Source of the DNA: Eledone cirrhosa
Taxonomy: Eukaryota
Length of the DNA stretch: 64,000 nt
Reading direction: 5' to 3'
Assembly (NCBI GenBank): GCA_964016885.1
Contig: OZ024748.1
Span: 3,348,001 to 3,412,000 of the forward strand
Position numbers and translations under genes: made by a program. Positions 8,135 through 63,920 of this stretch are shown here, piece by piece (within the stretch, counting starts at the first letter, position 1; every line of letters starts with the position of its first letter). The notes below the pieces were generated by a model. The model made no database searches, was not told the DNA's origin, and saw nothing but the letters and a program-made list of their open reading frames with translations.

Positions 8135-8210
8135 TATATATACACACACACACACACATACACACACACTAATATACATACATGTATACACACACACATA
8201 TATACACACA

Positions 8211-8274
<64 letters not shown>

Positions 8275-8418: not shown

Positions 8419-8500
8419 AGCCATAATACATATTTCAGTGGTGAAATGGTTACGTCATGATCCCATGACTCAATGCATGACACAACATCTTCAGATGACT
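8419..8500 (-). ncRNA. Type I hammerhead ribozyme
   Basis: AGTCAT-CTGAAGA-long stem II (TCATG/CATGA)-GAAA-TATGTA-TT-ATGGCT; 6-bp stem I, AUU site. Confidence 0.8.
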
Positions 8501-8590
8501 TATTAGGTAATTCATTTGTAAGACACTGTAATGTATGGAGACAAACCTGTGTTTGATGTTATTCCAAAAGCCTCTCTATCTATCTATCAT

Positions 8591-9711: not shown

Positions 9712-9843
9712 AACAACAGAAACAACAACAGCAGCAACAACAACAACAACAACAACAGCAGCAACAGCAACAGCAACAGCAACAACAACAACAACAACAA
9801 CAGCAGCAGCAACAACAACAACAGCAACAACAACACAGCAACA
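9712..9843. repeat. (CAA/CAG)n microsatellite
   Basis: Pure CAA/CAG tract. Confidence 0.95.
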
Positions 9844-10099
9844 AATATTGGAACCTATCTAGAATAATGGAACTGTCTCTTAATGGATTATACCTGAGAG
9901 GGAAATATTTTCGTTTGTGTGTGTGTTTGTGTATATACATGTGTGTGTTTGTGTGTGTGTCCTCGCACTCATCTACCACCACCACACACACACACACCAC
10001 CTGCTCCCTTCTCTATCGCAATGAAGACAATGACATTTACCTTACTATCTATCTATCTATCTATCTACCTATCTATCAACCTATCTATCTACTATCTGT

Positions 10100-10432
10100 C
10101 TGAGAGGTACCCCACCCCAGTAAATTTACTGAAAGGTGGGTGAATGAAGTGAAAATGGCCCGAGTGATTGGGCCTTCTCTGTTTATAAGCCTGTAGGTTG
10201 AAGAAAAGAGCAAAAGGAAGAAAGGTGCACTTGCACAACATGCTCCTGGAGTTGAGGGTTGTTCTATCTACGAGGTATTAAACAACCCATTTGTGGCCCC
10301 TCCCTCCTATTGGGGATTTCGATTGTTGTAATTGTTTGTTTTTATATTTTTTACACGACTCTATGTAAAATCCCCGGCATGTCTTTGTATTGTCCCCTTT
10401 TCTTGTGCGCCCTTGTGGCTAATAAAGAAATA
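10100..10432 (+). mobile_element. Tx1-clade LINE 3' fragment
   Basis: Homologous to 8790-9112; flanked by (ATCT)n. Confidence 0.85.
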
Positions 10433-10478
10433 TATCTATCTAATCTATCTGTTGTGTAACAAGCTTGAGACATTGGAA

Positions 10479-10542
<64 letters not shown>

Positions 10543-11056
10543 TGATGGAGGATGAGAGATAGGGTGATGGGGTGTGAGAGAAGATGAAGAGAGAGGGAGA
10601 GAAGGATTGAAAGAGAAAGAGAGGGGGTGGGGTTGTTGGTGATAGAGCCACAGCAAAAGGGTCAAGAGTACTTGTCAGTCATGTCAACAGAATGACAACC
10701 TGACAACCTCTCTAGTGTTGGTGATGTACATGATAAACACACCCAGTACACTCTGTAAAGTGGTTGGTGATAGGAAAAGATTGCAGCCATAGAAAGTTTA
10801 CCAAATGGGTGGAAGGATTCTTCAGTTGTGTCAACATCATCACAACCTGACAACCTCCTCCCTAGTATTTTATATATATATATATATATATACATAGGTG
10901 GATTGGCAGTTATCGGTAGAGGGTTGGACGCCATGCTTTGCAGCATAGAGTTACGGCCCTTTATGATCTGAGTTCAAATCCTGCAGAGGTTAGATACATA
11001 ATTATATAAATTTGGGGGGGAAACCAACTTGGTTGTTAGTAAGCTGGTGTTAGGAA

Positions 11057-11282
11057 TATAATTGTTTCTACTTTTAGGCACAAGGCCAGCAATTACCCCA
11101 GTGTATTACTGGTACTTTATTTTATTGACCTCGTGAGTATGAAAGGCAAAGTTAACTTCGGCAGGATTTGAACCCGCCGAGGTTAACTTTGCCTTTCATC
11201 CTTACTGGGTCGATAAAATAAAGTACCAGTAATACACTGGAGTAATTGCTGGCCTTGTGCCAAAAGTAGAAACAATTATATA
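11057..11282. mobile_element. Head-to-head inverted pair of Meta-like SINE 3' halves
   Basis: About 110-bp arms in opposite orientation joined at about 11170. Confidence 0.85.
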
Positions 11283-12018
11283 TATAGGTGTGTGTGTGTG
11301 GTGTGTCCTGTATCTGTATTAATGTTTGTGTCTGTCTGTATTACTCGTAACTTAGCAGTTTGACAAAAAGAGATCGATAAATATAAGAAAGAACTTGAAA
11401 AAAAAAAACAACAAACAAGCACCAGTGTTTGATATTCTTCCACTAAAATCCCTTTTACGTCAGTGAACCACGATGGCCACAGTCAAATGACTAACAACAA
11501 TAAAAGATTATAAGAGTCACATTTCTTTTTCAAAATTCATATAAAATTCAAATTAAAACAATTATTTATCAGAAACTTACAAAGAGTGAAAGAAAGAAAC
11601 AAGCAAATAAAGGGAGAAGAAAGAAGGAAAAGAAAGAAATGAAAAACTGAAATGCAAAAAATATAAATAAAAATGAGATGAAAAAAGTGAGGAATTTTCT
11701 TCTTTTAACCTCGAAAATAATTTATTCATAAAATTCTTCTTATCCTAGTTCCATGATAAACAATCAGATATAAAAATAGGAATCTTGTCAAAGTAGAATC
11801 AATAAATGCTACTGTGTGATGGAACTATGAATCAAATCATAAGAGGTTACCATTTTGGTGTGTATGTGTGTGTATATATGTGTGTGTGTGTTTATATGTA
11901 TGTGTGTGTGTTTGTATATATATACACATATAATCATCACCAATAGTTAGATTTATGGCAACAGAATTTTCTTCTGCATGTGATATTGCTTTTTACATAT
12001 CTCACACACACAGGAGCA

Positions 12019-12084
<66 letters not shown>

Positions 12085-13332
12085 ATCATCATATATAAAG
12101 AAACATACACACACATGGGGCCACAGATACGCACACACACAGGGGCACGTATACACACACACATTATATATATATATATTCATAGAGCTAATTATTTTTA
12201 CTTCTACTACATATGTCTCCACACAAACATGTATATGTATATAATCATTTTACATCCATTTTCTATACACACACACACACACATATATACACATACATAT
12301 ACACACATATTATTATATATATATATATATATATACACAGCCATATACACATACATACACACATTATTATACACACACATACACAGCCATATACACATAC
12401 ATATACACACATATTATTATATACACACATACATATACATACATGTATGGAGGGGAAAACTTTATAATTCTAAAATAAATCAGAATATACTATAATTGTT
12501 TCTACTTTTGGCACAAGGCCAGCAATCACCCCAGTGTATTACTGGTACTTTATAATATTAGGAGGTAGGGAGAAATGTGTGGGGGGGGGGGGGGGGGGGT
12601 TGAGTGTTGGTTTAAGGTTGAGATACTATGAGAATAGAGATGTGTGGGGGGGGGGGAGTGTATGTGTGTATATGGGTGAGAGTGTGTATGAGTGAGTGTA
12701 TATACGTGTGTGTATGTGTGGGGAGAGTGTGTGTATATGTGTGTGAGAGAGTGTGTGTGTGTGTGTATCTGTGTGTCTATATGACCCTGGTCCACCTAGA
12801 GGTCAGTGACTGCTGGAGTGATCTGTCACATTACATTCAACCTTTGCCAGCAGGACTGATGATGATGACGATGATGTGTGTGTGCATGTGTGTGTGTACG
12901 TGTGTACGTGTGTGTGTGTGTGTGTGTGAAAGTGCATGTATTAATGGTTAGATACATAATTATATATATTTGGGGGAAAAAACATCACTTGGTTGTTAGT
13001 AAGTTGGTGTTTGGAATATAAGAAAGGTTGTTATATAAAGTTAGAGTGGAAGGGCTTTCAGTTCTGTATGATAGAACCAGGGGCAATTTCAGGTGGTTTG
13101 GTATCAAAATGGTTAAATGACACCCACAAAATAATTTAACCAGCAAGGGCTTTTATAAGATTCCTCTCCCTTCTGATGTTTTTTAGTGAATGTATTGTTT
13201 CAGGTAGTTTAGTATTGTTTACTATGGAGGCATCTAAACATACCAGCAAATACTAATTTCCCTGTAAATTGAAAAATAATGATAAACACCTTAAATCGGT
13301 TTTCAGATCTAATTGGACCCTCGATATATATA

Positions 13333-13499
13333 CAGTGAAATTCCATTATAACGAAATTCATGAGGTATAAAAAGAAATTTGTTGTAACGAAAAATTCTTT
13401 ATAACGAGATCAACCGAAACAAATTGAGCGTCTGATATTACCTCGGAGATTGAAATGAAATTTGTTATAATGGTATTCATTATAACAGAATTTTACCTA
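13333..13499. mobile_element. Tigger/pogo-like MITE
   Basis: TA|CAGTGAAATTC start, repeated TTATAACGA subterminal motifs, decayed right end GAATTTTAC. Confidence 0.6.
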
Positions 13500-13521
13500 C
13501 ATATATATTCTGTTTACCTTT

Positions 13522-13552
<31 letters not shown>

Positions 13553-14049
13553 ATATATATTGAGTAAAATGGCAGGAGGCCGGACTGGTGACATTCCTTC
13601 AAAGATTTATATCAACAAACACTATATACATTTGAGTGGCCAGGTTTATATTGCATAATAGTTATATAATATATAAAGTATGGTAGGCAGGCAGAGAAAT
13701 AGGGAACTTTTGACAGAACTCAACTACTGGCTTTCCACATGTCTGTGGAGGGGTGATACTTAAATGGTTTTCTTTTATACCATGTATGTATGTATGTATG
13801 TATGTATGTATGTCTGTCTGCATGTCTGCATGTCTGTATGTATGTATGTCTGCATGTATGTATGTATGTATGTATGTCTGTCTGTCTGTCTGCATGTCTG
13901 TATGTATGTATGTCTGTCTGTCTGCATGTCTGCATGTCTGTATGTATGCATGTCTGCATGTATGTATGTATGTATGTATGTATGTATGTATGTATGTATG
14001 TATGTATGTATGTATGTATGTATGTATGTATGTATGCATGTATGCTACT

Positions 14050-14475
14050 AGTAACAACCTGTACAACCTGTCGCATGGTCGGGTCGTCGGCCACTAAACC
14101 GGCAACCCCACCAAGTTTACTTGGTGGGGAGGGTGATTTTGGACACCCTGCAGGACAAAAACCAAAACCTGACAAAGGGCGGAAGAACTCATAAGAGTCA
14201 ACGGCCATCCGAAAGTGTGTAAATATGTATATACACATGTACCGCGTGGTTAAACCACTGGGAGTGAAGGACCCCTAGCCTTTGTCAGGGCATTCTTCTA
14301 GGAGAAGGCAACTCAGGAAACTGGGATAACTCCGATATAAAACCTGCGGCTCAGTAGTTACCCATGATGTTGATATCTTCTTTTCAGGTTATAGCTACTG
14401 TCTCTCAGAGAGTGGGATTGGCTCAGTGCACAGTCTTTCCTCACTTTAAAAAATATCTTTGCGCACAGGCATTGC
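14050..14475 (+). mobile_element. Probable RTE-clade LINE 5' UTR fragment within (ATGT)n
   Basis: GC-rich and structured; motifs TCTAGGAGAAGGCAACTC and CTTTAAAAAATATCTTTGCGCACAGGC resemble RTE 5' leaders (recognised from memory). Confidence 0.5.
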
Positions 14476-14902
14476 ACAATAGAATTAATTGATAGTTATT
14501 AATAATGGTGTATCGTGCAATGGACATACTCGATAACGAGGGGGCAACCATCATGTATGTATGTATGTATGTATGTATGTATGTATGTATGTATGTATGT
14601 ATGTATGTATGTATGAATGTACCCATAATTCCTGATGGCACCGGGTGGGGGGGGGTCATAACACTGTTGGCTTTGTGCCTTCTAAACCAGCAACCATTAT
14701 TATACACTATTATAAATCTACCACCTTTCCACCCTACCCATCCCCAACTACACACATACACATTATATATATACACACACACACACATATATATATACAC
14801 ACACACACATATGCATATACATATACACACAGGGAAAAGCGGACGTAAAATGATGATGATGATGATACACACACACACACACATATATATATCTTCACAT
14901 TT

Positions 14903-14948
<46 letters not shown>

Positions 14949-14964
14949 TTCATTATATTTGTGT

Positions 14965-15010
14965 TGTTACTGTGGAGTCTCGCCTGTTTATCACAGGGTC
15001 ATCAGACTAG
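14965..15010 (-). ncRNA. Decayed hammerhead (GAAA to GAGA)
   Basis: GT-CTGATGA-C-CCTG-TGATAAA-CAGG-C-GAGA-CT-CCAC-AG-TA-AC. Confidence 0.55.
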
Positions 15011-15293
15011 AACATATATATATAACAACAGATTCCTGTATAATCATAATGATCATCTCAGACTCTTAACGATGTCTCATTTACCTGCCATCGTTAACAT
15101 CGACATCTGGCAATTTGCTGATAGACAGAAACAACATCAAAACAACATAAAAAAAGAAAAGTTTTTAAAAAAAACTGCTCCAATACTTTCCCTCCATTTT
15201 CAACTTTCCCCCTTACCTCATTGCTCATCCTTTAACACCAGACTAACAACTTTATATTCTTTCTTATCATAATCATTCAACTGTGTCGTTTAA

Positions 15294-16188
15294 CCCTTTA
15301 CCATTTACATTACCCTATATATACTATTGTATTTTCACAGTAAAGTCTTTACCTCACATAATATCTCACATAACATTTACATTACTCTATATATACTATT
15401 GTATTTTCACAGTAAAGGCTTTACCTCACATAATATCTCACATAACATTTACATTACTCTATATATACTATTGTATTTTCACAGTAAAGTCTTTACCTCA
15501 CATAATATCTCACATAACATTTACATTACTCTATATATACTATTGTATTTTCACAGTAAAGGCTTTACCTCACATAATATCTCACATAACATTTACATTA
15601 CTCTATATATACTATTGTATTTTCACAGTAAAGGCTTTACCTCACATAATATCTCACATAACATTTACATTACTCTATATATACTATTGTATTTTCACAG
15701 TAAAGGCTTTACCTCACATAATATCTCACATAACATTTACATTACTCTATATATACTATTGTATTTTCATAGTAAAGGCTTTACTTCTCATAATATCTCA
15801 CATAACATTTACATTACTCTATATATACTATTGTATTTTCACAGTAAAGGCTTTACTTCTCATAATATCTCACATAACATTTACATTACTCTATATATAC
15901 TATTGTATTTTCACAGTAAAGGCTTTACTTCTCATAATATCTCACATAACATTTACATTACTCTATATATACTATTGTATTTTCACAGTAAAGGCTTTAC
16001 TTCTCATAATATCTCACATAACATTTACATTACTCTATATATACTATTGTATTTTCATGGTAAAGGCTTTACCTCACATAATATCTCACATAACATTTAC
16101 ATTACTCTATATTTACTATTGTATTTTCACAGTAAATGCTTTACTTCACATAATTATCACATATAATATTGAATCTACAATATTTTGA
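15294..16188. repeat. 72-bp tandem array (about 12 units) inside a truncated piggyBac-like MITE
   Basis: Starts TTAA|CCCTTTACCATTTAC; unit is the reverse complement of the 48.5-kb and 52.8-kb arrays. Confidence 0.9.
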
Positions 16189-16189
16189 T

Positions 16190-16372
16190 ATTGGCAGTAT
16201 CGGTAGAGGGTCGAACGCCATGCTTTGCAGCATAGAGTTACGCCCCTTTACAGTCTAAGTTCAAATCCCGCCGAGGTTAACTTTGCCTTTCATCCTTACG
16301 GAGTCGATAAAATAAAGTACCAGTAATACACTGGGATAATTGCTGGCCTTGTGCCAAATGTAGAAACAATAA
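16190..16372 (+). mobile_element. Meta-like SINE
   Basis: Same family as 4523-4745. Confidence 0.85.
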
Positions 16373-16821
16373 TTTTATATAAGAACCTGACATTAAGTTA
16401 CTATGTTAGTAATGAAATAATTAATAATTTTAGTAAACCCTTGGAAGTTCTTCACTAATTAACTAAAATAGAGTGTATTTCATTAGAAATGTGGTTATGA
16501 AAGGTTAGTCTTTAACATCCTGTACCACATGAAACCCTTCTTGACAACTACAAAACCTCACCATGATGGCATTACTTTATAGTCTTCACTTTAGTTTACT
16601 GCAAGTTTTCACAATCTTTCCCCTAGTATAGATACTATAAACATTTGAACAAACCATGTGACATTAGCAAGACCACAAAACAATTCTATAACTTCATCAC
16701 ATTCAAAATTACAGCCTTTACTTTAGTGTGTGGTGTGAGTGTGAGTGCATGTGTATGTGTATGTGTGTGTGTGTGTGTGTGTGAGTGTGAGTGTGTGTGT
16801 GTGTATATAAAGTGAACTTAC

Positions 16822-16882
16822 TCAGTATACTGGCAGCATCAAAGAAATTGTGACTGGGGGATGTATGGTCACCAGGATCCAT
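16822..16882 (-). CDS. Candidate first coding exon (exon 16898-16822), MDPGDHTSPSHNFFDAASIL, product unknown
   Basis: Strong acceptor ttttcattttttttcag, donor gtaagt, in-frame TAA upstream of ATG, other frames closed, unique sequence. Confidence 0.55.
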
Positions 16883-16996
16883 TGTGGATTAGAAGTTTCT
16901 GAAAAAAAATGAAAAGAAAAAAAAACATTTTAATTAAAAATAAAAAGCAATAAATCATCTGCATTGAAATGTGTCAAAATCTTTGTTTAAAATGAA

Positions 16997-17077
16997 GCTG
17001 TGATACATATTTCAATGGCATTTGTGGCTCCGTGATGGTTCAATCACGCAACCAGTCACACAATATCATCAGACAAC
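16997..17077 (-). ncRNA. Type I hammerhead ribozyme
   Basis: GTTGT-CTGATGA-long stem II (CGTGAT/ATCACG)-GAAA-TATGTA-TC-ACAGC; AUC site. Confidence 0.85.
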
Positions 17078-17121
17078 ATCTTATGTAATAAAGTTACGTT
17101 TCCGAGGTAATCTAAAGACAA

Positions 17122-17181
<60 letters not shown>

Positions 17182-17282
17182 CATATGTAAAAGTAATAAC
17201 AAAAGTACCAACAACAAAAAATAAACAGCATAATAGAAGGAAGAAATATATTAGTTTAACGCTTGAAATAGCAGGAAGAGAG

Positions 17283-17318
17283 TCTTAACATTTCGGACAT
17301 TAGTCCTTCACCAGAAGA
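17283..17318 (-). ncRNA. Minimal Penelope-type hammerhead (core substitutions)
   Basis: TCTT-CTGGTGA-A-GGAC-TAAT-GTCC-GAAA-TG-TT-AAGA. Confidence 0.7.
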
Positions 17319-17837
17319 TAGAGTTAGAAATAGAAAATAAATAGAAAGTAGAGAGTAATGAGAGGAACGAACAGGGGAAAATCAGGAGAAAATTGGGGAG
17401 AAAAAAATATATATATATCATTAGCTTTTTAGTATACTAATTAATAACTAATTAAATATATTACATTCAATTAAGTAATTAACTACAATCAGAAGAATTT
17501 GGGAGGTATACAGTAAAAATTGAGGATATTTGAGTTATGATAACATGCGAGAAAAGTGTCCAGTAAGGTAGGTATCTACACCAGAGTAATTAATTTACTT
17601 ATCTTAATTAAAAACTTAATTAATAGAAACAAAGAAAGACAAAGAACTAAAGAAAAAAATTTTTTAAAAAAAGTATAAATGTATTTCAACAAGAACTGTG
17701 TTTGATGTTCCAAGTTATGTGTGTGTGTATAAATATATACCCACACACATCCATGTGTATATGCATAGTTTTAGCAATATGTATAGCTCTCATAATAAAA
17801 GAGAGTAAATGTGTATGTGGAGGGGGGGGGGGGCACA

Positions 17838-18060
17838 TTTGGTAGTGGCGCTCCGTTGGTTATGACAACGAGTATTCCAGTTGACCCGGTCAACGGAACA
17901 GCCTGCTAGTGAAATTAACAGGCAAGTGGCTGAGCATACCACAAACTCACGTACCTTTAACATAGTTCTCAGGGAGATTCAGCACAACACAGAATGTAAC
18001 AATGCTAGCCTTTCGAATTACAGGTAGAACTAGAGCAACGTGAAATAAAGTACCTTGCTA
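17838..18060 (-). mobile_element. SINE body fragment (CORE-like end at 18030-18060)
   Basis: GAGCAACGTGAAATAAAGTACCTTGCT matches the CORE-like segment of the other SINEs. Confidence 0.55.
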
Positions 18061-20249: not shown

Positions 20250-20292
20250 ACGCTGTACTAGTTTCAAGCTTATTAGCTATCATCAGCAACAT
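20250..20292 (-). ncRNA. Minimal type I hammerhead ribozyme
   Basis: ATGTTG-CTGATGA-T-AGCT-AATA-AGCT-T-GAAA-CTAG-TA-CAGCGT; palindromic stem III, GUA site. Confidence 0.85.
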
Positions 20293-20473: not shown

Positions 20474-20814
20474 TCATCATTTTCATCATCATTTTACATC
20501 CACTTTTCCCTGCTTGCAAGGGTGGGACAGGAACTGATTCTGGCTTGATTTCTACAGCTGGATGCCCTTCCTCACACCAACCTCATTTACAGTGAGTGCT
20601 GGGTGCTTTTTTGCAGTGGCACCTCCACGACCACTTTGCAGTGGAATGACAGGGACCCCAGTCCCTATCATCTCATTTCTACAGCTGAGTAAACTGGAGC
20701 AATGTGAAATAAAGTGTCTTGCTCAAGGAAACAACACATCACCCGGTCTGAGAATTGAACTCACAACCTTTCGATTGCAAGGCCAATGCTCTAACCACTA
20801 AGCCATGTGCCTCC
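20472..20814 (-). mobile_element. CORE-like SINE with RTE tail, full length
   Basis: Highly similar to 1103-1441. Confidence 0.9.
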
Positions 20815-23733: not shown

Positions 23734-24637
23734 CACATATCTATATATACACACACATATAAATATATTGATTTGAAATTATTAAAAAGCTGAAATGATA
23801 AGTAGAAAGAATTAAAATGTAATGTTTTATTCAGAAATTCAAGTCTAAAGAGAATTCTCAATAAACCATTACATTTTAATTCTCTCTATATGTTGTTTGG
23901 AGTTTGGAGTTTTTTAATCGTTTGAAATCATTAAATTGTTGCCATGCTTTGAAATACTGCCTCGAAGCACAACTTATATATATATATGCGATCTACACAA
24001 TAAAGGCACCCAATACACTCTGTAAAGTTGTTGGTCTTAGGAAGGGCATATAGCTGTAGAAAGCTTGCCAAACAAGGGGTTAGGAGGACCCTTTAGTTTA
24101 CATCAAAAGACAGGACAACTTCTCCTCTGCACTCAATGAGTGTATGTGGAATACAGACCCCCTTGGCCTGTCTGGGACATCAGTGGCCCTGCTTCAGTAC
24201 TGACCTGGTCTATGTACACCCCTGCAAAACTTGCTAGCAGGTGTTGGATTTTAATTTAAATAGGAACCCCTGTGGATCTACTAGAAGCTGCTAAACTAGT
24301 TCCTATAATATGTGTCATCAAAAATAAAGTCCTGAAGCTGTCTGATCATGTAAAACATTCACAAAACAATCTTTCTAAAACAGGTATGGGGGGTATGATA
24401 CAGGTTGAAAGAAACAGGGGTAGGGCACCAAATATGTATGGAGGGTATGATTCAGGGTAAAAGAAATAGGGGTAGGCCATCAAGGTACTGGTGAGACGAT
24501 GTCTATAAACGGTCTGGATTAAATTTATATGAACTAAAGACGTGTAAAATAGGAAACTTTGGCAGGAACTAAGCTATGTTAGTTTGTAATCTACCACAGG
24601 TAGAGACAGCAACAGTAATAGGTTCATTGATAGTTTA

Positions 24638-25685
24638 AACTATATATCTGTCTACTTGTCAACTGCCTTAAGCCCAAACTATATATCTGTTTACCTGTCA
24701 ACTGCCTTAAGTCCAAACTATATATCTATTTACCTGTCAACTTCATTAAGTCCAAACTATATATCTGTTTACCTGTCAACTTCATTAAGTCCAAACTATA
24801 TATCTGTTTACCTGTCAACTTCATCAAGCCCAAACTATATATCTGTTTACCTGTCAACTGCATTAAGTCCAAACTATATATCTGTTTACCTGTCAACTTC
24901 ATCAAGTCCAAACTATATATCTGTTTACCTGTCAACTTCATCAAGTCCAAACTATATATCTGTTTACCTGTCAACTGCATCAAGTCCAAACTATATATCT
25001 GTTTACCTGTCAACTTCATCAAGTCCAAACTATATATCTGTTTACCTGTCAACTTCATCAAGTCCAAACTATATATCTGTTTACCTGTCAACTGCATCAA
25101 GTCCAAGCTATATATCTGTTTACCTGTCAACTGCATCAAGTCCAAACTATATATCTGTTTACCTGTCAACTTCATCAAGTCCAAACTATATATCTGTTTA
25201 CCTGTCAACTTCATCAAGTCCAAACTATATATCTGTTTACCTGTCAACTGCATCAAGCCCAAACTATATATCTGTTTACCTGTCAACTTCATCAAGTCCA
25301 AACTATATATCTGTTTACCTGTCAACTTCATCAAGCCCAAACTATATATCTGTTTACCTGTCAACTTCATCAAGCCCAAACTATATATCTGTTTACCTGT
25401 CAACTTCATCAAGTCCAAACTATATATCTGTTTACCTGTCAACTTCATCAAGTCCAAACTATATATCTGTTTACCTGTCAACTTCATCAAGCCCAAACTA
25501 TATATCTGTTTACCTGTCAACTTCATTAAGTCCAAACTATATATCTGTTTACCTGTCAACTTCATCAAGTCCAAACTATATATCTGTTTACCTGTCAACT
25601 GCATCAAGTCCAAACTATATATCTGTTTACCTGTCAACTTCATCAAGCCCAAACTATATATCTGTTTACCTGTCAACTGCATCAA
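24638..25685. repeat. 39-bp minisatellite (about 27 units)
   Basis: Unit AAACTATATATCTGTTTACCTGTCAACTTCATCAAGTCC. Confidence 0.95.
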
Positions 25686-26217
25686 TGAGAAGCTGAAAAC
25701 CTGCCATTCCTTCTTCACAAATTAGTTACCGTATAAATCTTTTTTTTTCCTGCTATATTTAACTCGTGTTTTATTTCAACGAGATAATTATCTTGTGAAG
25801 ATAAAATACTACAGTTAAAATAGCAGCGGATGGGGAGGGGGGGGGGGGGGGGGGGCAAAAGGAAACAATTACAGTAGGTGATATAAGGTGATGGAAAGGC
25901 AGGTGCTAGATAGGTAATCATCCAGCAAACATTAAATAAGTGAATCAATCTTCAATGTGGCTCTTTCCTGTCTCAAATTCTCATAAACATCATTTACACA
26001 AACATCTGAGCAGTTCGAGTACCAGTAATATTATACTAAAATAAGTGACTCAATCTTGAATGTAGATCTTTCCTCTTTCAAACTCTCTTAACTGTTTAGC
26101 ATTTAAACCGGCCATATCCAGCCAAGATTCTCTCACCTCTTTCTGTTTAAACCAACCATAACCACCCACTCATGCTTATAAAAAATCTTGGCTTCTGTGA
26201 GATTCAATGACTTTTAA

Positions 26218-28625: not shown

Positions 28626-28958
28626 TATATAGTTTATGTGAATAAAGAGAACAGATAGGAAGTTCAAATTATCTTAGAATGTGTTGTAGACATAAAAACA
28701 CATTATATCATCATCAACATTATCATTTAATGTTCTTTCTACTTGCTATCACACACACAAACATCCATCATCCATATATATATTATATATATATTATATA
28801 TATATACACACACGCAACATGTGTGTATATATAATTTGGACATCTTCATTAAGTACATGTAGTCTATTGTTAGTTATCATAACTTAATGAAATACTAAAT
28901 AACCATTCCTATTCCTGCTAATTAGAGATTTAATGAATCAGAGTTGTATTAATGGAAC

Positions 28959-29245
28959 AGGTTGTGAGTTCAATTCTCAGACCGGGCGATGTGTTGTTTC
29001 CTTGAGCAAGACACTTTATTTCACATTGCTCCAGTTTACTCAGCTGTAGAAATGAGATGATAGGGACTGGGGTTCCTATCATTCCACTGCAAAGTGGTTG
29101 TGGAGGTGCCATGGCAAAAAAGCACCCAGCACTCACTGTAAATGAGGTTGGTGTTAGGAAGGGCATCCAGCTGTAGAAATCAAGCCAGAATCAGTTCCCA
29201 TCCCACCCTTGCAAGCAGGGAAAAAGCGGACGTAAAATGAAATGA
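28959..29245 (+). mobile_element. 5'-truncated CORE-like SINE with RTE tail
   Basis: Reverse complement of the 1103-1400 family. Confidence 0.9.
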
Positions 29246-33920: not shown

Positions 33921-34420
33921 AGTAATGGTGACCACCCTGCAGGGGTGAGCGCCATGGAGTGGACTGTCTTATTAAACCTATAGTAGTAATGGTGACCACC
34001 CTGCAGGGGTGAGCGCCATGGAGTGGACTGTCTTATTAAACCTATAGTAGTAATGGTGACCACCCTGCAGGGGTGAGCGATATGGAGTGGACTGTCTTAT
34101 TAAACCTATAGTAGTAATGGTGACCACCCTGCAGGGGTGAGCGCCATGGAGTGGACTGTCTTATTAAACCTATAGTAGTAATGGTGACCACCCTGCAGGG
34201 GTGAGCGCCATGGAGTGGACTGTCTTATTAAACCTATAGTAGTAATGGTGACCACCCTGCAGGGGTGAGCGCCATGGAGTGGACTGTCTTATTAAATCTA
34301 TAGTAGTAATGGTGACCACCCTGCAGGGGTGAGCGATATGGAGTGGACTGTCTTATTAAACCTATAGTAGTAATGGTGACCACCCTTCAGGGGTGGACTG
34401 TATTATTAAACCTATAATAG
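33921..34420. repeat. 64-bp minisatellite (about 8 units) flanked by about 50-bp direct repeats
   Basis: Unit contains palindrome CCCTGCAGGG; flanks 33873-33924 and 34422-34473. Confidence 0.9.
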
Positions 34421-34818
34421 TAGACTTCTGGCCTTCTTAGTCCCAGAACCACGTCTCTACTGCTATCGGGGTAGAGTTAGGTCGACTACAGGGGTGTGTC
34501 TGTGTATATGTCTATATGCCCGCTTGTGTATATGTTTGTGTGTGTACATGTCTATATTTGTTTGTATGTGTATCTATGTTTGTGTGTGGGTGGGTGTAGC
34601 TATACACCCGCGTATGTCTATGTTAGTGTGTCTATATGTCTATGTCCGCATGCATGCGTGTGTGTGTGTGTGAGTTAGCTGTTGGTAACGATGGCCCACA
34701 AACGAAACAAGTTCTTTGACATTTTTAGTGCATTTCTAAATATATAACAATTTTTTCTTTCTTTCTCCGTCAATTAAACATGTTCATAGGATATATAAAT
34801 TATTTCAGAGAGATAGCT

Positions 34819-34856
<38 letters not shown>

Positions 34857-34867
34857 TTTATATACAA

Positions 34868-35053
<186 letters not shown>

Positions 35054-35361
35054 TATATTTTTTTACATTTATTTTTAGAAAGCGGTATAATTGGATCAGG
35101 CAAGCGGGGCAAGAAGAAGCAAAAATGTAAAATATATGTCGGCTGCCCAATGGGAGGAGCAGATGTTAATAATCGAGTTTGGAAAGAGACGAGGAAGGAG
35201 ACGATGAAACTCTACTGTAACATGCCGGATTATTAACTATACCCCTCTCCCCCTCTCTCTATATGTGTGTGTGTGTCAGGTAATTCCAAAGGAAAGGAAA
35301 GGAAAAAAGAGTGCTCTATGTATAAAACAGAGCTCTATAATTAGAAAGTGAACAACACAAC

Positions 35362-35805
<444 letters not shown>

Positions 35806-36265
35806 ATATATATATATATATATTACCCACTCTACTACCTCAAGTATCGAGTACTCTGGTGCGTTATGGTCCACCTGGTATGTATCTTACCACACCTTCT
35901 TTGTTATATATATATATCTTTCTCTCTTCATTTTGTTTTATTTTGTTATGTTTTCATTGATGAGATCCAAGATGGTTTACAACAAGTGAGTCTTTAAACG
36001 TCCGTATAGAGCTAGTAAGTTATGACAGACGCGGGGAAGTATTTAATACTTCTTACAGTTGAAAAACGAAAACAAAACAAAACAAAGCAAAGCAAACAAC
36101 AAACAAACAAAATAAACAGACGAGTGAATATAAAAATATAAATAAGGCCAACTAGAGACAAAATAAGTATTAAAAAAAGATAAAGAAAATATGTGAAGCT
36201 GTAAAAAAAGCATCCAGAAGGTTCTGTTGTTGAATCTTTTCGTAATCTCCATGTTTAACTAAATA

Positions 36266-36452
36266 TAATTGTTTCTACTTTTGTCACAAGGCCAGCAATT
36301 ACCCAGTGCATTACTGGTACTTTATTTTATCGACCCCGTGAGAATGAAAAGCAAAGTTAACCTCGGTGCGATTTGAACTCAGAATGGCAAGGGGCGTAAC
36401 TCTATGCGTCAAAGCATGGCGTCCGACCCTCTACCGATACTGCCAATCCACC
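36266..36452 (-). mobile_element. Meta-like SINE, full length
   Basis: Reverse complement of the 4523 family. Confidence 0.85.
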
Positions 36453-37235
36453 AAACAACACGAGAAAGTATATATACACTCAATCATCACTGCTAGGCTT
36501 AACCCTGCAGGCTGGCCAACTTCCACTCCGATAGCAGAAGGTAGAAAGATGTCTCGGGGAGTAAGAACTTTCTACTGCTATACGTTTGATATGATAAGCC
36601 AGTTCATTTTATTTAACGACGAGACTGGCTCTTTGAATTATAGGTACAGTCCATCCGCCGGGCATCCAAACAGTTTCCGTCTACCCAATTTGGAAAATAC
36701 AGCTGAAAAAACGGACAGTCCCATCTCTTCAGCCAACCTCTGGCGTTCATAGTCCCCATTCCATCTACTTACAGCTATTGAGGTGGGTTTCGGTTCATTA
36801 AGGTCGATACCATTCATTCCAGTGTACATTGAAACGTAACAAAACAGAGAGAGACAAGCTATGCCTTCCTGTGAATTACACAAATATAGATGAAAAGGTA
36901 TCCCAATAAAATCTGCAGTTTTTTGTAATGGAAAACATATTTAATTTGAATATAACAGTGCCTTTCTTTCCTTGTTGTCCTAAGGATGTGATTGTTTAGC
37001 TCAATGATTTAATCATGCCCTGGGTACCAGACATATACTGGTGCCAGTTAAATCTTCCTAGCATACCACTATATATATATTTGTTAACCGAAACACATGA
37101 CACTGGCTATAGAGAACATGGTAGCAAGTTGCTGTCGAAATTTCCAACTTCTTCCTTTTCTTATTAAATTTACAGCCAAATTTTTATAATTACATCCGTT
37201 AAAGGTGAAATTTATACTTTTCCGGTGTTTTATTT

Positions 37236-37322
<87 letters not shown>

Positions 37323-37661
37323 AACGAATCTGACGTTGAAAACCTTCAGAAATTATTCATTTTGTTGTTGTTGTCGTTAAGGTTACTTAAAGGGTGGGGA
37401 TGGGGACACTCTCGAAGGTGAACCAAACTAACATGTTCACCCAAACAATTCTCAGTCGGAAATGTTTGAAGTCATATAAAATATTGTTGGTAAAGTTTAA
37501 TTGTTTCTACTTTTGGCACAAGGCCACCAATTATCTCAGTGCATTACTGGTACTTTCTTTTATCGACCCCGTAAGGATGAAAGGCAAAAGAATTACCTCG
37601 GCGGAGTTTGATTTCATTTCTCAGATGCAGAGTTATTAGTGTCAGGAAAATGTTTAACACT

Positions 37662-37980
37662 GAAGGCGCGTGGCTTAGTGATTAGAGCGTTGGGCTGTGA
37701 GTTCGATTCCCGGACCGGGTGATGCGTTGTGTCCTTGAGCAAGACACTTTATTTCTTGTTGCTACAGTTCACTCAGCTGTAGAAATAAGTTGCGACATCA
37801 CTGGTGCCAGGCTGTATCGGACATTGCCTTTCCTTTGGACAACATCGGTGGCGTGGAGAGGAGAGACTGGTCTACATTAACGACTGCTGGTCTTCCACAA
37901 ACAAACCTTGCTTGGGCTTCTACCCTGGAGGGACACTTTCTAGGTGCAAAACCTTGGTCATTAGTGATGGGGGCCATAAC
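37662..37980 (+). mobile_element. CORE-like SINE with a different 3' tail
   Basis: Box A TGGCTTAGTG, box B GTTCGATTCC, CORE-like segment; sister copy 42758-43240. Confidence 0.8.
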
Positions 37981-38774
37981 ATTTGTTCAAATCCTGCCGA
38001 GGTCAACTTTGCCTTCTATCCTTCCGATAAGTATATAGCAGTCATGTACTGGGGTCAATACAATTGACAAAAAGGAACCGATGAAATAAGTATCAGGATC
38101 GGGAAAAAAAAGAAGAAAATAAGTACTGTGGGGGTCGATTAAACCCCTTCAAAGTGATTGCCCAAGCATGGCCGCAGTCTGATGATTGAATCCAGTGGCA
38201 ATGAGTTCGACAAAAAATAGATCGATAAAATATGTATATCAGGCTTTAAAAAATAAGCCCTGAGGGTGGTGGGTGTAGATATTATTGACTAGAGCCCTTT
38301 ACAGTGCTTGCTCAAGCATGGCCGCAGTTTAATGACTGAAACCAGTGACAGGGTGCGTTGAGATAGGTACAACAACATAACAGATAAATCAGTTTGACTG
38401 AGAGAAGATAGTGTGTATGAGAGAGGGGGAGAGATGAGAGAGAGAGTGTGTGAGAGAGAGGAGAGATGAGATAGTATGTATGTGTCTGTGTAAGAGTGAG
38501 AGAGTGAGAGAGAGAGAGAGAGAGAGTGTGTGAGAGAGAGTGTGTGAGAGAGTGTGAGGAGATAGTGTGAGGAGATAGTGTGAGGAGATAGTGTGTGTAT
38601 GAAAGAGAGAGAGAAGTTATAGTGTATGTATAAAAGAGAGAAAATGTTTTAATGCAACAATAATCAATAGAAAACAAACAACAATTGCTACATCAGAGGA
38701 TTCGAATAACTGCTGCTATATATATATATATATATATATATATAAGATCAAAAGATGGTTAAATGAGTTCCATG

Positions 38775-38845
38775 TATTTTATTATGCGCATTTCAAAAAC
38801 AAATATCATCATGCAATAACATTTGTGTTTTCATCAGATAAAATA
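38775..38845 (-). ncRNA. Type I hammerhead ribozyme, intact
   Basis: TATTTTAT-CTGATGA-AAACACAAATGTTATT..GATGATATTTGTTTTT-GAAA-TGCGCA-TA-ATAAAATA. Confidence 0.9.
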
Positions 38846-38967
38846 GGAGGACATGATATGAAGGTTAAAAAACACTTGTGGATAGTGCAGTTTTAAATCA
38901 ACATATATATATATATATATATATATACGATATTAACAAATGGAAACTATATTTATAAAACCATATT

Positions 38968-39032
38968 TATTTCATTATACATATTTCAAGGACACCAAGT
39001 TAAATTATGGTGTGCTTTCATCAGATAAAATA
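38968..39032 (-). ncRNA. Type I hammerhead ribozyme, intact
   Basis: TATTTTAT-CTGATGA-AAGCACACCA..TGGTGTCCTT-GAAA-TATGTA-TA-ATGAAATA. Confidence 0.9.
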
Positions 39033-39380
39033 TAATATAGATCAGTTTTATAAATAAATATTGACATACCCTTAAAAAATGCAACCATTACTGTTGGAAG
39101 CTCCCGGATAGTGGAGTTGTTTAATTATATTATTATTAGTATTGGATATTTTTATTTTTAAAATAAGCCGTTGGGTTACAGAGAAAGAAAAAGATAAAGG
39201 AGAGAGAGAAAAAGAGAAAGAGAGAGAAAGAGTTTCCATTTGTTAATATCGTATTTTTACTCCAAATATTTGTTGAGTGCTTTATATCAGTTATAAAAAT
39301 ATTTGCTTGTTGTATCCCAACAATTTAAATAGAACTTTTACATATATATATATATATATTCAATAAACAGACCAGGATTT

Positions 39381-39440
39381 TTTCATTCTGATGATTGAAA
39401 GCAAAATTTTTTGCTTTTAAGAAACCACTGGTAAATGGAA
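39381..39440 (+). ncRNA. Type I hammerhead ribozyme, intact
   Basis: TTTCATT-CTGATGA-TTGAAAGCAA..TTGCTTTTAA-GAAA-CC-ACT-GG-TA-AATGGAA; GUA site at 39433. Confidence 0.9.
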
Positions 39441-39534
39441 TAATTGCCTTATGTTGTTTATTGCATAACTATTAAGCTCTGTTACCTACATAGAGCACTC
39501 TTTTTTCCTGGACTTTTCCGACGGAATTACTTCA

Positions 39535-39577
<43 letters not shown>

Positions 39578-40344
39578 ATATACTGCTGTGATGATAGTTG
39601 CAAGAGAAAAGATTACACTCTACATATATATACATCGTACATATACACTACACATGTATACTGTACATATATATATATCGTATATATTCACATTACATAC
39701 ATATAAATACAGTACATATAGACATATTGTACATGTATACTGTACGCGTATACACATTAAATATATACACATTGTACATTTACACTCTGTATACTGTATA
39801 TATACATATATACACACTGTATCTTCTGTATACTGTATATATACATATATACACACTGTATCTGTTAGTATGGTTGATACAATGTCACCACTGCCTTGAT
39901 TGCCTGCGTCTATTGTAAATCAAAAACTAATATGAGTGCGCGTGTGAATATGTGTGTGCATGTGTGTGCATGTGTGTGTATGTGTGTGTATGTGTGTGTG
40001 CATGTGTGATACTTTCACCTCCAGCGGAAAAAGAAATGAAATTAAGCAATTCCAGATTTTTTATGCAACCGAAAAGCAGATGACAAGTTAGTGACACACA
40101 TACACACGGAATTACCGATGTCAATTACATTGTCAACATTCACTCGATGTAGAGATTGTCTTTGTGCAAAAACATTAACGAAAATTTATTAAATTTATTT
40201 GCTAAGTTAGACTGATTTAAAAATATATAAATTTCGAGTGTAATTTACCTGAAAACTAAGGAACACACACAAGTCCCAGGTTCTTTTAAGTTCCTTAGCC
40301 CTTCCCCCCAACCACCAGAAAACATATAAATACAACTGTTTTAC

Positions 40345-40640
40345 AATGACAGATGGCTCTCCTGGTGATTTGTTTTGAATGAAACAGTTCTAGTCCTGTA
40401 GAAAGCATTTCTATATTAAACATTATATATATATACCCCCGATTGAACCCGGGATAAACTTACCGGGTTCAATCGGGGGTAACCACAGTAAGTAAGGTAC
40501 TCAACACAAAGCAGAGTATATATATTTAATATAGAAAGGCTTCTACAGGGTTAGACTAGAACTGTTTCATTCGGGAGAAATCATCAGGAAACAGCTGTCC
40601 GAATGAAACAGTTCCAGTCCTGAAGCATTTCTATATTAAA
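40345..40640. mobile_element. Multiply inverted Penelope-like termini with hammerhead-like CTGATGA-TTTC..GAAT-GAAAC
   Basis: Nested inverted repeats 40377-40572 and 40435-40480. Confidence 0.65.
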
Positions 40641-40756
40641 AACAGAGAGAGAGGGAGGGGTCTCCCAAATAATGTCTACAGACTTCAACAGCAATCTAAT
40701 AAATATTGCTTGACAGGTAATCAAAGGAGGTATACATGTTTTTGTGGGAGACACCC

Positions 40757-40803
<47 letters not shown>

Positions 40804-41204
40804 AAAGGTTTTTAAGTGTTACTAAAACCACCACAAAGCAACTTGCGCCTACCCAGGTCTTTGTGCGAGTTAAAAGTTGCTTGGAGGTTAGAATCAGACG
40901 TTACACTTTCGTTAAAAAATAAGATATAAAATTTCATAAATATATTTTTAATTTTAATACCATTTGCAAAGAAACGGCCATAGAAGAGGAAGGGGAAATA
41001 TTGGGGAGGTTTGGAGGAGCTGATTAAGCAATAAAATTTCTCTGAACCGGATAAGACTTAAGAGAGATGGCAGCATCTACAAAGTTCATGAGTCACACTG
41101 CCATATTTAATTGTATTTCATTAGATAATTCGTTTGGCTGCTTCTATTTCAGAAAGTAAGTACTATATCTTATGTATGTGTATATATATATGTATGTATG
41201 TATG

Positions 41205-43884: not shown

Positions 43885-43888
<4 letters not shown>

Positions 43889-44096
43889 GTTATATTTAAT
43901 TTGTTGGGATTCAACAAGCTTAAACATTTTTATAACTGATATAAAGCACTCAACAGGTTAGTGGAGTAAATATACAATATATTAATATATTACTAAATGG
44001 AAACTATATTTATAAAACCATATTTATTTTATTATACATATTTCAAGGGCCACCAAGGCAAATTATGGTGCGCTTTCAACCATAGTTTCCGTTTAG

Positions 44097-44100
<4 letters not shown>
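43885..44100 (-). mobile_element. Copy of the 38925-39340 hammerhead element, broken at the catalytic core and folded back
   Basis: Matches 38940-39020 up to TTTCA, then inverted ATAGTTTCCGTTTAGTAAT. Confidence 0.75.
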
Positions 44101-48434: not shown

Positions 48435-50408
48435 CCCTTTAGCATTTAAACCGGTCATATCTGGCCAGAATTCTCACACCTCTTTCTGTTCAAACTGGAT
48501 ATAACCGGCCACTCATACTTATGTTAAGGTATTGTTCTCAAAAATCAAAATCTCAGATTCGGTATTATGTAAAGTAAAGCCTTTACTGTGAAAATACAAT
48601 AGTAAATATGGAGTAATGTAAATGTTATGTGAGGTAAAGCCTTTACTGTGAAAATACAATAGTAAATATGGAGTAATGTAAATGTTATGTAAAGTAAAGC
48701 CTTTACTGTGAAAATACAATAGTAAATATGGAGTAATGTAAATGTTATGTGAGGTAAAGCCTTTACTGTGAAAATACAATAGTAAATATGGAGTAATGTA
48801 AATGTTATGTAAAGTAAAGCCTTTACTGTGAAAATACAATAGTAAATATGGAGTAATGTAAATGTTATGTGAGGTAAAGCCTTTACTGTGAAAATACAAT
48901 AGTAAATATGGAGTAATGTAAATGTTATGTAAAGTAAAGCCTTTACTGTGAAAATACAATAGTAAATATGGAGTAATGTAAATGTTATGTGAGGTAAAGC
49001 CTTTACTGTGAAAATACAATAGTAAATATGGAGTAATGTAAATGTTATGTAAAGTAAAGCCTTTACTGTGAAAATACAATAGTAAATATGGAGTAATGTA
49101 AATGTTATGTGAGGTAAAGCCTTTACTGTGAAAATACAATAGTAAATATGGAGTAATGTAAATGTTATGTGAGGTAAAGCCTTTACTGTGAAAATACAAT
49201 AGTAAATATGGAGTAATGTAAATGTTATGTGAGGTAAAGCCTTTACTGTGAAAATACAATAGTAAATATGGAGTAATGTAAATGTTATGTGAGGTAAAGC
49301 CTTTACTGTGAAAATACAATAGTAAATATAGAGTAATGTAAATGTTGTGTGAGGTATTATGTGAGGTAAAGCCTTTACTGTGAAAATACAATAGTAAATA
49401 TGGAGTAATGTAAATGTTATGTGAGGTAAAGCCTTTACTGTGAAAATACAATAGTATATATGGAGTAATGTAAATGTTATGTGAGGTAAAGCCTTTACTG
49501 TGAAAATACAATAGTAAATATGGAGTAATGTAAATGTTATGTGAGGTAAAGCCTTTACTGTGAAAATACAATAGTAAATATGGAGTAATGTAAATGTTAT
49601 GTGAGGTAAAGCCTTTACTGTGAAAATACAATAGTATATATGGAGTAATGTAAATGTTATGTGAGGTAAAGCCTTTACTGTGAAAATACAATAGTAAATA
49701 TGGAGTAATGTAAATGTTATGTGAGGTAAAGCCTTTACTGTGAAAATACAATAGTATATATGGAGTAATGTAAATGTTATGTGAGGTAAAGCCTTTACTG
49801 TGAAAATACAATAGTAAATATGGAGTAATGTAAATGTTATGTGAGGTAAAGCCTTTACTGTGAAAATACAATAGTAAATATGGAGTAATGTAAATGTTAT
49901 GTGAGGTAAAGCCTTTACTGTGAAAATACAATAGTAAATATAGAGTAATGTAAATGTTGTGTGAGGTATTATGTGAGGTAAAGCCTTTACTGTGAAAATA
50001 CAATAGTAAATATGGAGTAATGTAAATGTTATGTGAGGTAAAGCCTTTACTGTGAAAATACAATAGTAAATATAGAGTAATGTAAATGTTGTGTGAGGTA
50101 TTATGTGAGGTAAAGCCTTTACTGTGAAAATACAATAGTAAATATGGAGTAATGTAAATGTTATGTGAGGTAAAGCCTTTACTGTGAAAATACAATAGTA
50201 TATATGGAGTAATGTAAATGTTATGTGAGGTAAAGCCTTTACTGTGAAAATACAATAGTAAATATGGAGTAATGTAAATGTTATGTGAGGTAAAGCCTTT
50301 ACTGTGAAAATACAATAGTAAATATGGAGTAATGTAAATGTTATGTGAGGTAAAGCCTTTACTGTGAAAATACAATAGTAAATATGGAGTAATGTAAATG
50401 TTAAAGGG
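48435..50408. mobile_element. piggyBac-like MITE with about 30 x 60-bp internal satellite
   Basis: TTAA|CCCTTTAGCATTTA ... TAAATGTTAAAGGG|TTAA. Confidence 0.9.
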
Positions 50409-50781
50409 TTAAGTTGAAAGGAGAGACGTGGTTTGAATACTTACAAGAGAGAAGACTGCGAAAGTCAGCCAAAGACCAAGACACTGTCTGAGTGGAGGAT
50501 CTTCAGCATCTGTGTTTAACTACACTAGAATCACCATCTCCGTTTGTCTGCACTAGAATGGGTTAGACAAGTTATCCTGTTGAGAGACAAGTCAGATCAG
50601 ATGATCATGTCCTGCTTACACAGGACTTTTCTGGTTTGGTTTCTATGGCTGGATCCCCTTCCTAATGCCAAACACATTTACAGTGTAGAGCTGTTCAAAC
50701 AGCTGGAACTATCTGTTGAAACAGCAAGAGCTCAGCTGTTGGGGTCCAGACTCTTTATTATATATATATATATGTGTGTAT

Positions 50782-62902: not shown

Positions 62903-63600
62903 ATTTCATTTATTAGCCACAAGGGCCGACATGTAGGGGACAATACAAAGACAGGGACAGTGGGGGGTTTACGATAAGGTCGAGTAAAAGTGCACAATGG
63001 CAAGACTAATTTAACAATGAAGATATAAAAATATAAAATAAACTATGCATAAATATAACAAAATAAATTCCTCTATAGGGGGTGACTCGGGTACCCCACC
63101 AATCCTGAACCACCTTGCACTTCTAGGGCACCCAGGGAGAGCACCCCCTCTCCTCAAGTTAGCTAGCGTATAGGTGCATGGTCAGAGTAGGCCCATTCAC
63201 ACGGGCCATTCTCGCCACATTCACCCACCTTTTAGCAAATGTACTGGGGAGCAGCACTTCTCTCTCCACCCTCACCTTCTTTTCCAGGTGAAACTTGAAG
63301 AAGTTGATGAGGTATTGGCCAAAGAGAAAAGTGTCTGTCTTCAGTCCTTTAAACCTGGTCCACCATATAATCTCTTTGGCAACTGCCACCAGACAGAGGA
63401 AAATTTCCTGCTCTTCCTGACCTAAGGAAGGCGGTGGGTCGATCTTCACTATGGACTCGGCCGATAGCCGGATCCATTCCACACGCGACAGTAGCTGTCC
63501 GACATAACTCCACAAGTCAGTAATGCACGGACATTGGACAAGTGCGTGCAGAACGGTTTCGTCGTTCTGTGCGCATCTTGTGCAGGTCCGTCTGACAGCA
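62903..63600 (-). mobile_element. Tx1-clade LINE 3' end with open ORF2 C-terminus including a CCHC zinc knuckle
   Basis: CTRCAQNDETVLHALVQCPCITDLWSYV...AKEIIWWTR; flanked by (AAT)n. Confidence 0.9.
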
Positions 63601-63920
63601 AATAATAATAATAATGATAATAATAATATGAAGGGAAAAATAGGGAGAGAGATTGTGTGATTCTATGAATGTTGTTGGCAGTGGAGAGAGGAAATATAGA
63701 ATATAGATTCAATGGCTCTTTGGTGGTTGTGGTTGTTGTGGTTGGTTTCAGTCAAACTGTGGCCATGCTGGGGCTACCACCACCTACGAGGGATTTAGTC
63801 GAAGGCAACCAGCCAGTGTGACCCATGCCAGTGTGGAAAAGGGACATAAAATGGTGGTGATGATGATGATGATGGTGGTGGTGGTGATAGTGGTGGTGGT
63901 GATGATGGTGGTGATGGTGG

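Follow-up and report, generated by a model that had tools for sequence, protein, structure and literature searches.

A type I hammerhead motif at 39381–39440 heads a 177-nt repeat, very probably the truncated 3′ end of a Penelope-like retroelement

The hammerhead motif

The window, by which we mean the whole 64,000-nt stretch of DNA that was analysed, is animal-type sequence of ~35% GC and is rich in microsatellites. A descriptor scan of the window found a type I hammerhead at 39381–39440 on the plus strand. Its parts, placed by the scan or, for stem II and helix III, given with their pairing, are as follows:

39381–39387, plus strand: stem I, 5′ strand, TTTCATT
39388–39394, plus strand: core, CTGATGA
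39395–39420, plus strand: stem II, 11 bp with one G.U pair and a 4-nt loop
39421–39424, plus strand: GAAA
39425–39431, plus strand: CC-ACT-GG
39432 and 39433, plus strand: U16.1 and H17 (A39433), of the GUA triplet
39434–39440, plus strand: stem I, 3′ strand, AATGGAA
39424–39432, plus strand: odd palindrome ACCA-C-UGGU of 9 nt that forms helix III (duplex −8.2 kcal/mol)

Stem I comprises 7 bp including one G.U, helix III consists of A-U, C-G and C-G with a 3-nt loop, and the cut is predicted to fall 3′ of A39433. The motif has the type I arrangement of CUGANGA...GAAA...UH, helices I–III and an open end in helix I. Its stem II is closed by U39395-A39420 and not by G10.1-C11.1, a pair described as highly conserved in hammerheads (Cervera & de la Pena 2014, PMC4209133) which, as a criterion for type I, is conserved rather than universal. 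The Rfam hammerhead models gave no match at gathering score across the window, and none was among the 47 matches at E ≤ 10 in 34000–41000. A preliminary description of this DNA had called the hammerhead 'textbook'; the core, the 7-bp stem I, the CC/GG pairing and the GUA site were all recovered by the descriptor scan, but the U-A closing pair and the lack of an Rfam match set it apart from a textbook case, and stem II, given there as 10 bp, parses as 11 bp.

With the strict descriptor a motif appeared in none of 200 locally dinucleotide-shuffled windows; with the loose one it appeared in 4 of 200, the real window having 4 loose matches. A weak match from the same scan lies at 18460. When 39376–39445 is folded the hammerhead is the minimum-energy structure, at a z of only −1.79 (13 of 200 shuffles folded equally well). 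Within the 177-nt context described below, the hammerhead fold lies 0.4 kcal/mol above the minimum (−36.7 versus −37.1 kcal/mol), with stem II almost sure to form and a probability of ~0.2 for stem I and for helix III. The folding models favour the hammerhead shape at 39381–39440 without deciding it, and we regard this stretch as a real hammerhead motif, intact at the level of sequence.

When two copies are modelled as a dimer, 8 of the 9 positions of 39424–39432 are predicted to pair, at −31.2 kcal/mol versus 2 × −11.1 (−22.2) kcal/mol for the monomers. By these models the near-palindromic helix III would favour activity as a dimer, and its two C-G pairs may leave some monomer activity possible. 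In animals, thousands of hammerhead motifs lie in the ends of Penelope elements, and Lunse et al. reportedly described minimal or short-helix-III hammerheads in the pLTRs of metazoan Penelope-like elements (PLEs). PLE hammerheads on their own are described as cleaving poorly (Cervera & de la Pena 2014, PMC4209133). As a ribozyme the motif is ordinary; its use is as a marker.

The 177-nt element and its relative at 35280–35550

The hammerhead heads a 177-nt piece, 39361–39537, that is flanked by (TA)n tracts and has a relative on the other strand some distance upstream:

39342–39359, no strand: (TA)n tract, left flank (target remnant)
39361–39537, plus strand: non-coding, very probably a 5′-truncated PLE 3′ end comprising a pLTR fragment and its tail, from (TA)n at both ends, homology, contigs and Hydra-like layout
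39476–39499, plus strand: tail hairpin, GCTC-stem-2-nt bulge-GAGC then ACT, 42 nt past the cut site
39500–39530, plus strand: pyrimidine run and 3′ end GGAATTAC, common to the 35280 copy
39538–39575, no strand: (TA)n tract, right flank (target remnant)
35280–35414, minus strand: long arm of a head-to-head inverted insertion of the same family, with a degenerate hammerhead (CUG-UGA), no stem II and a full tail
35501–35550, plus strand: short arm of the 35280–35550 inverted insertion, ending ~12 nt past the cut site in (TA)n

Comparison of 39420–39530(+) with 35390–35280(−) gave 74% over 113 nt (E 4e-13), running from GAAA to the common end GGAATTAC. The link between these two elements, proposed earlier from the CC/GG stem III, is thus borne out by likeness extending beyond helix III. 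The distance from the cut site to the common 3′ end is 97 nt, and 39361–39537 has its hammerhead in a terminal repeat close to the 3′ end, as Penelope elements do.

The 35280–35550 insertion consists of 5′-truncated copies, one with an inverted truncated partner and the tail at one end; PLE insertions are reported to be 5′-truncated, often with an inverted copy, and to have one tailed end (Craig et al. 2021, PMC8557442). The same inverted-partner pattern is found in other families at 38929–39340, 40558/40601 and 42347/42389, making four cases in the window of head-to-head arms of one family, and these four pairs are the known inverted insertion of Penelope elements. BLAST found no direct copy of 39361–39537 (a partial tandem pLTR) in the window; solo ends are described as the usual case for truncated PLEs (Cervera & de la Pena 2014, PMC4209133).

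Two observations count against a PLE reading. The short arms are without ~85–100 nt of tail, which is longer than the 30–40 bp given for the one-ended tail of PLEs (Craig et al. 2021, PMC8557442), and the core of the 35362 copies is degenerate. Both arms at 35362–35553 have CUG-UGA, with A6 missing, and lack stem II; this core belongs either to a decayed template or to a deviant ribozyme subfamily. An Rfam match to mir-3179 at 35389–35526 (39 bits, cut-off 90) was rejected as an inverted repeat scoring as a hairpin.

Neighbouring families, (TA)n tracts and repeat abundance

Upstream of the 177-nt element lie two hammerheads on the minus strand, here m1 and m2, and a third family is scattered on both sides of the cluster:

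38744–38902, minus strand: m1, solo fragment of another family, with a hammerhead at 38775–38845, helix III AUGCGCAU and (TA)n on both sides
38929–39150, minus strand: m2, left arm without tail, with a hammerhead at 38968–39032; inner boundary approximate
39231–39340, plus strand: m2, inverted right arm, a tail without hammerhead, with a bulged hairpin at 39259–39281
35766(+), 40377(+), 40558(−), 40601(+), 42347(−), 42389(+) and 43315(+): third-family motifs, GAAUGAAACAGUUCUAG

The gap between the minus-strand pair and the 39381 motif is 349 nt, in agreement with the 350 bp first given, and the three motifs span 666 nt. The preliminary description had counted three intact ribozymes in about 670 bp on both polarities; all three motifs are present, 'intact' referring to their letters only. 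It had also held the 39381 motif to be distinct from the TATGTA minus-strand family, and BLAST found no match between that family and 39361–39537.

The first 20 nt of 39231–39340 are an exact inverted repeat of 38929–38948, and at 43889–44078(−) both m2 parts are joined in one direction. Further copies of the m-family are at 3603–3669 and 43889–44078. Solo copies of the TATGTA family span 3468–3760(−) and 43886–44098(−); the motif at 3603–3669 has a full core, but a C opposite U in helix III, and the 43889 copy is truncated within the core. The third hammerhead-like family, GAAUGAAACAGUUCUAG, has a short stem II and seven motifs between 35766 and 43329, including the head-to-head pairs 40558/40601 and 42347/42389; its best core is 40554–40587(−), and its tail hairpin occurs at 35829, 42076 and 57587. 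Between 35200 and 44100 there are at least 13 hammerhead-like motifs or remnants of the three families, and in the rest of the window two (3603 and 20256). The latter, at 20256–20286(−), looks intact, with a stem I of 6 bp, a stem II of 4 bp and ACUAGU as helix III; its stem II is flanked by U.U, as in many rows for Hydra families.

With element ends set by the analyst, a (TA)n tract lay no more than 6 nt from an end of each of the six elements measured, and no more than 2 nt from both ends of the three in the cluster; among random 180-nt segments, at a 10-nt cut-off, 8% had one end and 0.4% both ends at (TA)n. Both ends of 39361–39537 and one end of 35280–35550 lie at such tracts. An insertion hotspot around (TA)n, one of two proposals made earlier for the cluster, agrees well with these distances. 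Insertion into (TA)n is not diagnostic of the Hydra clade, because it is common to Naiad and Neptune.

Sequencing contigs from 4 of 20 runs were placed on 38744–39537 at 80% likeness. Those that fitted numbered 12,513 (run X1), 1,267, 137 and 33, the last two in runs from other organisms. In X1 the summed contig depth, which is no copy number, was 0.15–3.3 million on the modules versus 7,000–18,000 on the spacer 39122–39175, or ~100-fold lower. Given the contig numbers and this contrast with the spacer, the modules are separate, very abundant interspersed repeats. Ten of the 15 joints listed (of 19) rejoin the m2 arms, two of these ten with at least 30 letters on the short side, and because they use different breakpoints the inverted layout of m2 evidently recurs with variable truncation. 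None of the 15 touches 39361–39537; the contigs are cut at (TA)n tracts, and adjacency across tracts lies outside their reach.

These data bear on the other proposal, that the cluster is a single ambisense unit, such as a viroid- or deltavirus-like RNA integrated as one piece. Three hammerheads on two strands within 666 nt would suit such an RNA. One strand carries two of the three, however, the modules come from distinct repeat families, each of which is found by itself elsewhere in the window, and both the low spacer depth and the joints, of which ten of the 15 listed rejoin m2 arms and none involves the plus motif, speak against a unit. Because there are two families, each found alone and joined only through (TA)n, the ambisense unit is unsupported and we regard it as scarcely credible. 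Clustered PLE hammerheads could be mistaken for viroid-like ambisense RNAs.

The whole cluster could also be one compound insertion, in which a PLE enzyme primed on each strand and changed templates from the RNA of one family to that of another. The four arms all face away from ~39150–39230 (two left, two right), a PLE protein is reported to cleave and extend both strands in vitro (PMC11167929), and the clustering is tighter than uniform, at a post hoc p of ~0.001 for 3 of the 4 motifs within 610 nt. The modules are separated by (TA)n, however, and copies standing alone elsewhere are likewise bordered by (TA)n at their truncated end; moreover, the presence of a third family in 35.2–44.1 kb implies that the whole region attracts insertions. 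We consider a compound origin quite improbable.

Ten variable sites are listed within 39381–39499, two of them in loop II, five in the spacer, two in the loop of the tail hairpin and one changing the stem I G.U to A-U; among the variable sites listed (40 of 71) none falls in the core of the motif. The contigs suggest that the family of 39361–39537 comprises subfamilies differing in stem II, since stem II of the 39381 copy has less contig depth than the part that starts with GAAA. A ribozyme domesticated by the host to cut a local intron or lncRNA would fit the intact core and stems, given the degeneracy of the nearest family member, but such intactness is expected of a young repeat copy, the listed variation across copies respects the structure family-wide, and no host gene was identified in the window, which makes domestication highly improbable.

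We think it very probable that 39361–39537 is the solo 3′-terminal piece of a PLE, most likely of a Hydra-clade family, and that the minus-strand pair represents other PLE-type ends. In the mechanism that we propose, a PLE reverse transcriptase-endonuclease encoded elsewhere in the genome would have nicked the (TA)n tract, and reverse transcription of the element RNA would have been primed at its 3′ tail and would have stopped ~20 nt past the hammerhead, leaving 39361–39537 as a solo end. By analogy with other PLEs, the hammerhead in the parent RNA would cut 3′ of A39433, best as a helix III-paired dimer or with the element protein. The lone copy is probably a passenger, because no same-strand family partner adjoins it. 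The minus-strand pair would be ends left in that (TA)n tract by another family of PLE type, and its opposite polarity would reflect insertion on either strand together with head-to-head inverted insertion, not an ambisense RNA. Solo motifs derived from truncated PLEs and opposite-strand pairs 100–700 bp apart have been described (Cervera & de la Pena 2014, PMC4209133), and PLEs are said in a review to land in or beside earlier copies. On this reading several hammerhead-bearing PLE families, at least one of them near the little-studied Hydra clade, would be dense in the non-coding DNA of this genome.

Likeness to Hydra-clade elements and the tail hairpin

None of the 150 longest non-repetitive frames (of 362 in the window) matched the PLE RT or GIY-YIG domains of Pfam, and translation upstream of the hammerheads gave no convincing GIY-YIG end. 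Because no RT gene was found beside 39361–39537, its membership of the Hydra clade rests on RNA layout. The comparison was made by eye and with short motifs against supplementary files of Craig et al. 2021 (PMC8557442), the control set being Naiad, Chlamys and Hydra, with Neptune, Nematis and Poseidon outside it. A 13-mer from the tail had one match in the 584,000-character supplement, in a Hydra consensus; it was one of four motifs tried, and ~0.01 matches were expected by the analyst's estimate. A 9-mer from the tail was matched twice, each time in a Hydra-Ajap consensus, and not at all in the Naiad or Chlamys files, although line breaks could hide matches to motifs so short.

Three of the six new Hydra consensi in this supplement run from the end of the ORF through the hammerhead, a spacer of 38–47 nt and a GCTC/GAGC hairpin with a 2-nt bulge followed by ACT, to a pyrimidine run. 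By eye, Hydra-2_Ajap, Hydra-2_Amil and Hydra-1_Crog (imperfect) have the same hairpin 38–47 nt after the hammerhead; the other three consensi end 36–47 nt past the cut site, and one of them begins with the hairpin. The order in the window is that of these Hydra 3′ ends, with spacers of 42 and 43 nt. In File S2, again by eye, helix III is of the form AC...GU in all 25 Hydra families and 9 nt long, as at 39424–39432, in 19 of the 25, and a U follows A9, as in the 39381 motif, in 15. An AC...GU helix III of 9–10 nt together with a downstream GCTC/GAGC-ACT hairpin, a combination that we drew from the supplement rather than a published criterion, is present here.

The element therefore shares with the Hydra-clade PLEs of this source (PMC8557442) a type I hammerhead near the 3′ end, an AC...GU helix III that is usually 9 nt, the U after A9, the downstream bulged hairpin with ACT and pyrimidine run, the (TA)n target and inverted 5′-truncated copies; Hydra elements are described there as having canonical hammerheads and as nearly all inserted in (TA)n (Craig et al. 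2021). It differs in its stem II, which is 11 bp by comparison with 3–8 bp in File S2 and is closed by U-A where the Hydra families have U.U or G-C, and in that no ORF is attached. From these likenesses 39361–39537 probably belongs to the Hydra clade. Neither hammerheads in PLE ends nor a Hydra element in an octopus is new, and the helix III of the octopus family Hydra-1_oBim has the same 4+1+4 form with one base different. Identity with Hydra-1_Obim itself was excluded, helix III alone being alike and the stems and 3′ flank differing.

By comparison with the minimal hammerheads described for metazoan PLE pLTRs (PMC4209133), the 39381 motif is likewise of type I, with a long helix II and a short palindromic helix III suiting dimers, and occurs likewise as a mostly solo truncated copy with opposite-strand pairs 100–700 bp apart; it has a true 3-bp helix III rather than none, and is without G10.1-C11.1.

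Animal non-LTR retrozymes (PMC7229834; Li et al. 2026 preprint) are similarly short, non-coding, low-GC, PLE-related repeats with a type I hammerhead, and 39361–39537 could be a monomer of such a non-autonomous element, transcribed from a tandem array, cleaved into unit-length RNA, made circular and returned to the genome by a PLE enzyme, with no coding parent. A 177-nt unit of low GC with a type I hammerhead suits the class, for which monomers are reported as common and a derivation from pLTRs is given (PMC7229834); the piece is very repetitive in its host, and no ORF was seen. The window, however, has no tandem array of the piece, and no head-to-tail copy or tandem hammerhead units; the relative at 35280–35550 forms an inverted pair whose 5′ ends vary, as in PLE insertions; and the fixed 3′ end is placed as in the coding Hydra consensi (PMC8557442), not circularly permuted. 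A retrozyme is therefore unlikely, if less so than the other alternatives.

A PLE 3′ end also finds a parallel in PAc, a Poseidon element of the green anole (Frangieh et al. 2024, PMC11167929), which likewise has a hammerhead in the terminal repeat, an AT-rich target and a tail on some ends only. Its protein is reported to nick AT-rich DNA on both strands, with cDNA starting at two stem-loop sites behind the hammerhead; by analogy, such starts at two sites would account for long and short arms. Reverse transcription of PAc starts at a stem-loop ~85–92 nt past the hammerhead cut, close to the 97 nt found here, although in PAc the region past the hammerhead is the start of the ORF, whereas here it has no open frame of note (PMC11167929). 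The PAc hammerhead is described as cutting only with protein present and as dispensable for insertion in vitro (PMC11167929).

A metagenome scan with the family-specific pattern of 39361–39537 gave no match. A looser pattern gave 11, ten without stem I and one (L007) with 4-bp stems and no tail, and all were rejected. Scans of viral and prokaryote sequences gave at least 120 matches each, which we attribute to chance: among 251 loci only L007 was hammerhead-like, and BLAST at E < 1e-3 matched none of the 251 to 39361–39537. L007, on the minus strand of a metagenome contig (~2050–2099), forms 4 bp in each of stems I and II and 3 bp in helix III, and is possibly a real hammerhead unrelated to this family. 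In the literature on hammerhead and Penelope ends we found no description of the family; Penelope families are among the repeats annotated for Octopus vulgaris in 2026, in a paper that uses neither the word ribozyme nor the word hammerhead.

The fresh point is the tail hairpin, which is common to several phyla. The form with a 2-nt bulge has nine matches in the window, in three families and all with at least two inner pairs, and 200 shuffles gave at most one match (11 of 200). The pattern was defined after the first copies had been seen, and because of this the shuffle expectations of 0.05 and 0.00 are not independent. The m-family has the same hairpin form, but its helix III is 8 nt and begins with AU, unlike any Hydra row of File S2 (PMC8557442); because it is also in the m-family, the hairpin may not be Hydra-specific. 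We offer tentatively, as somewhat doubtful, that a bulged hairpin (RCTC-stem-2-nt 3′ bulge-GAGY, then RCT) lying 40–65 nt past the hammerhead has been conserved as a cis-acting RNA element in the PLE tails of corals, sea cucumbers, copepods and this animal, where it occurs in the three window families with a compensated G-C/A-U outer pair, and that it is a site of PLE-protein binding or of RT start; its function is a guess. If this is true, a hairpin on the long arm only would explain the long-arm/short-arm pattern of inverted pairs, and a hairpin that is the enzyme's start signal would provide a short testable handle on how PLEs build inverted insertions. A search of article texts, outside figures and Repbase, found no description of it; 'hairpin' and 'stem-loop' are words that Craig et al. 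2021 (PMC8557442) do not use in their main text.

Other repeats of the window include a 167-aa frame at 63162–63662(−) with a weak zf-RVT match (E 5e-4, below cut-off), probably a LINE remnant. Tandem arrays with copies 93–100% identical lie at 48445–50520 (60 nt), 24515–25828 (39 nt) and 15155–16246 (72 nt), the 60-nt array having open frames of ~630 codons on the minus strand. A 269-nt repeat in three copies 97% alike (1131–1399, 20504–20769 and 28956–29224) is a young interspersed element.
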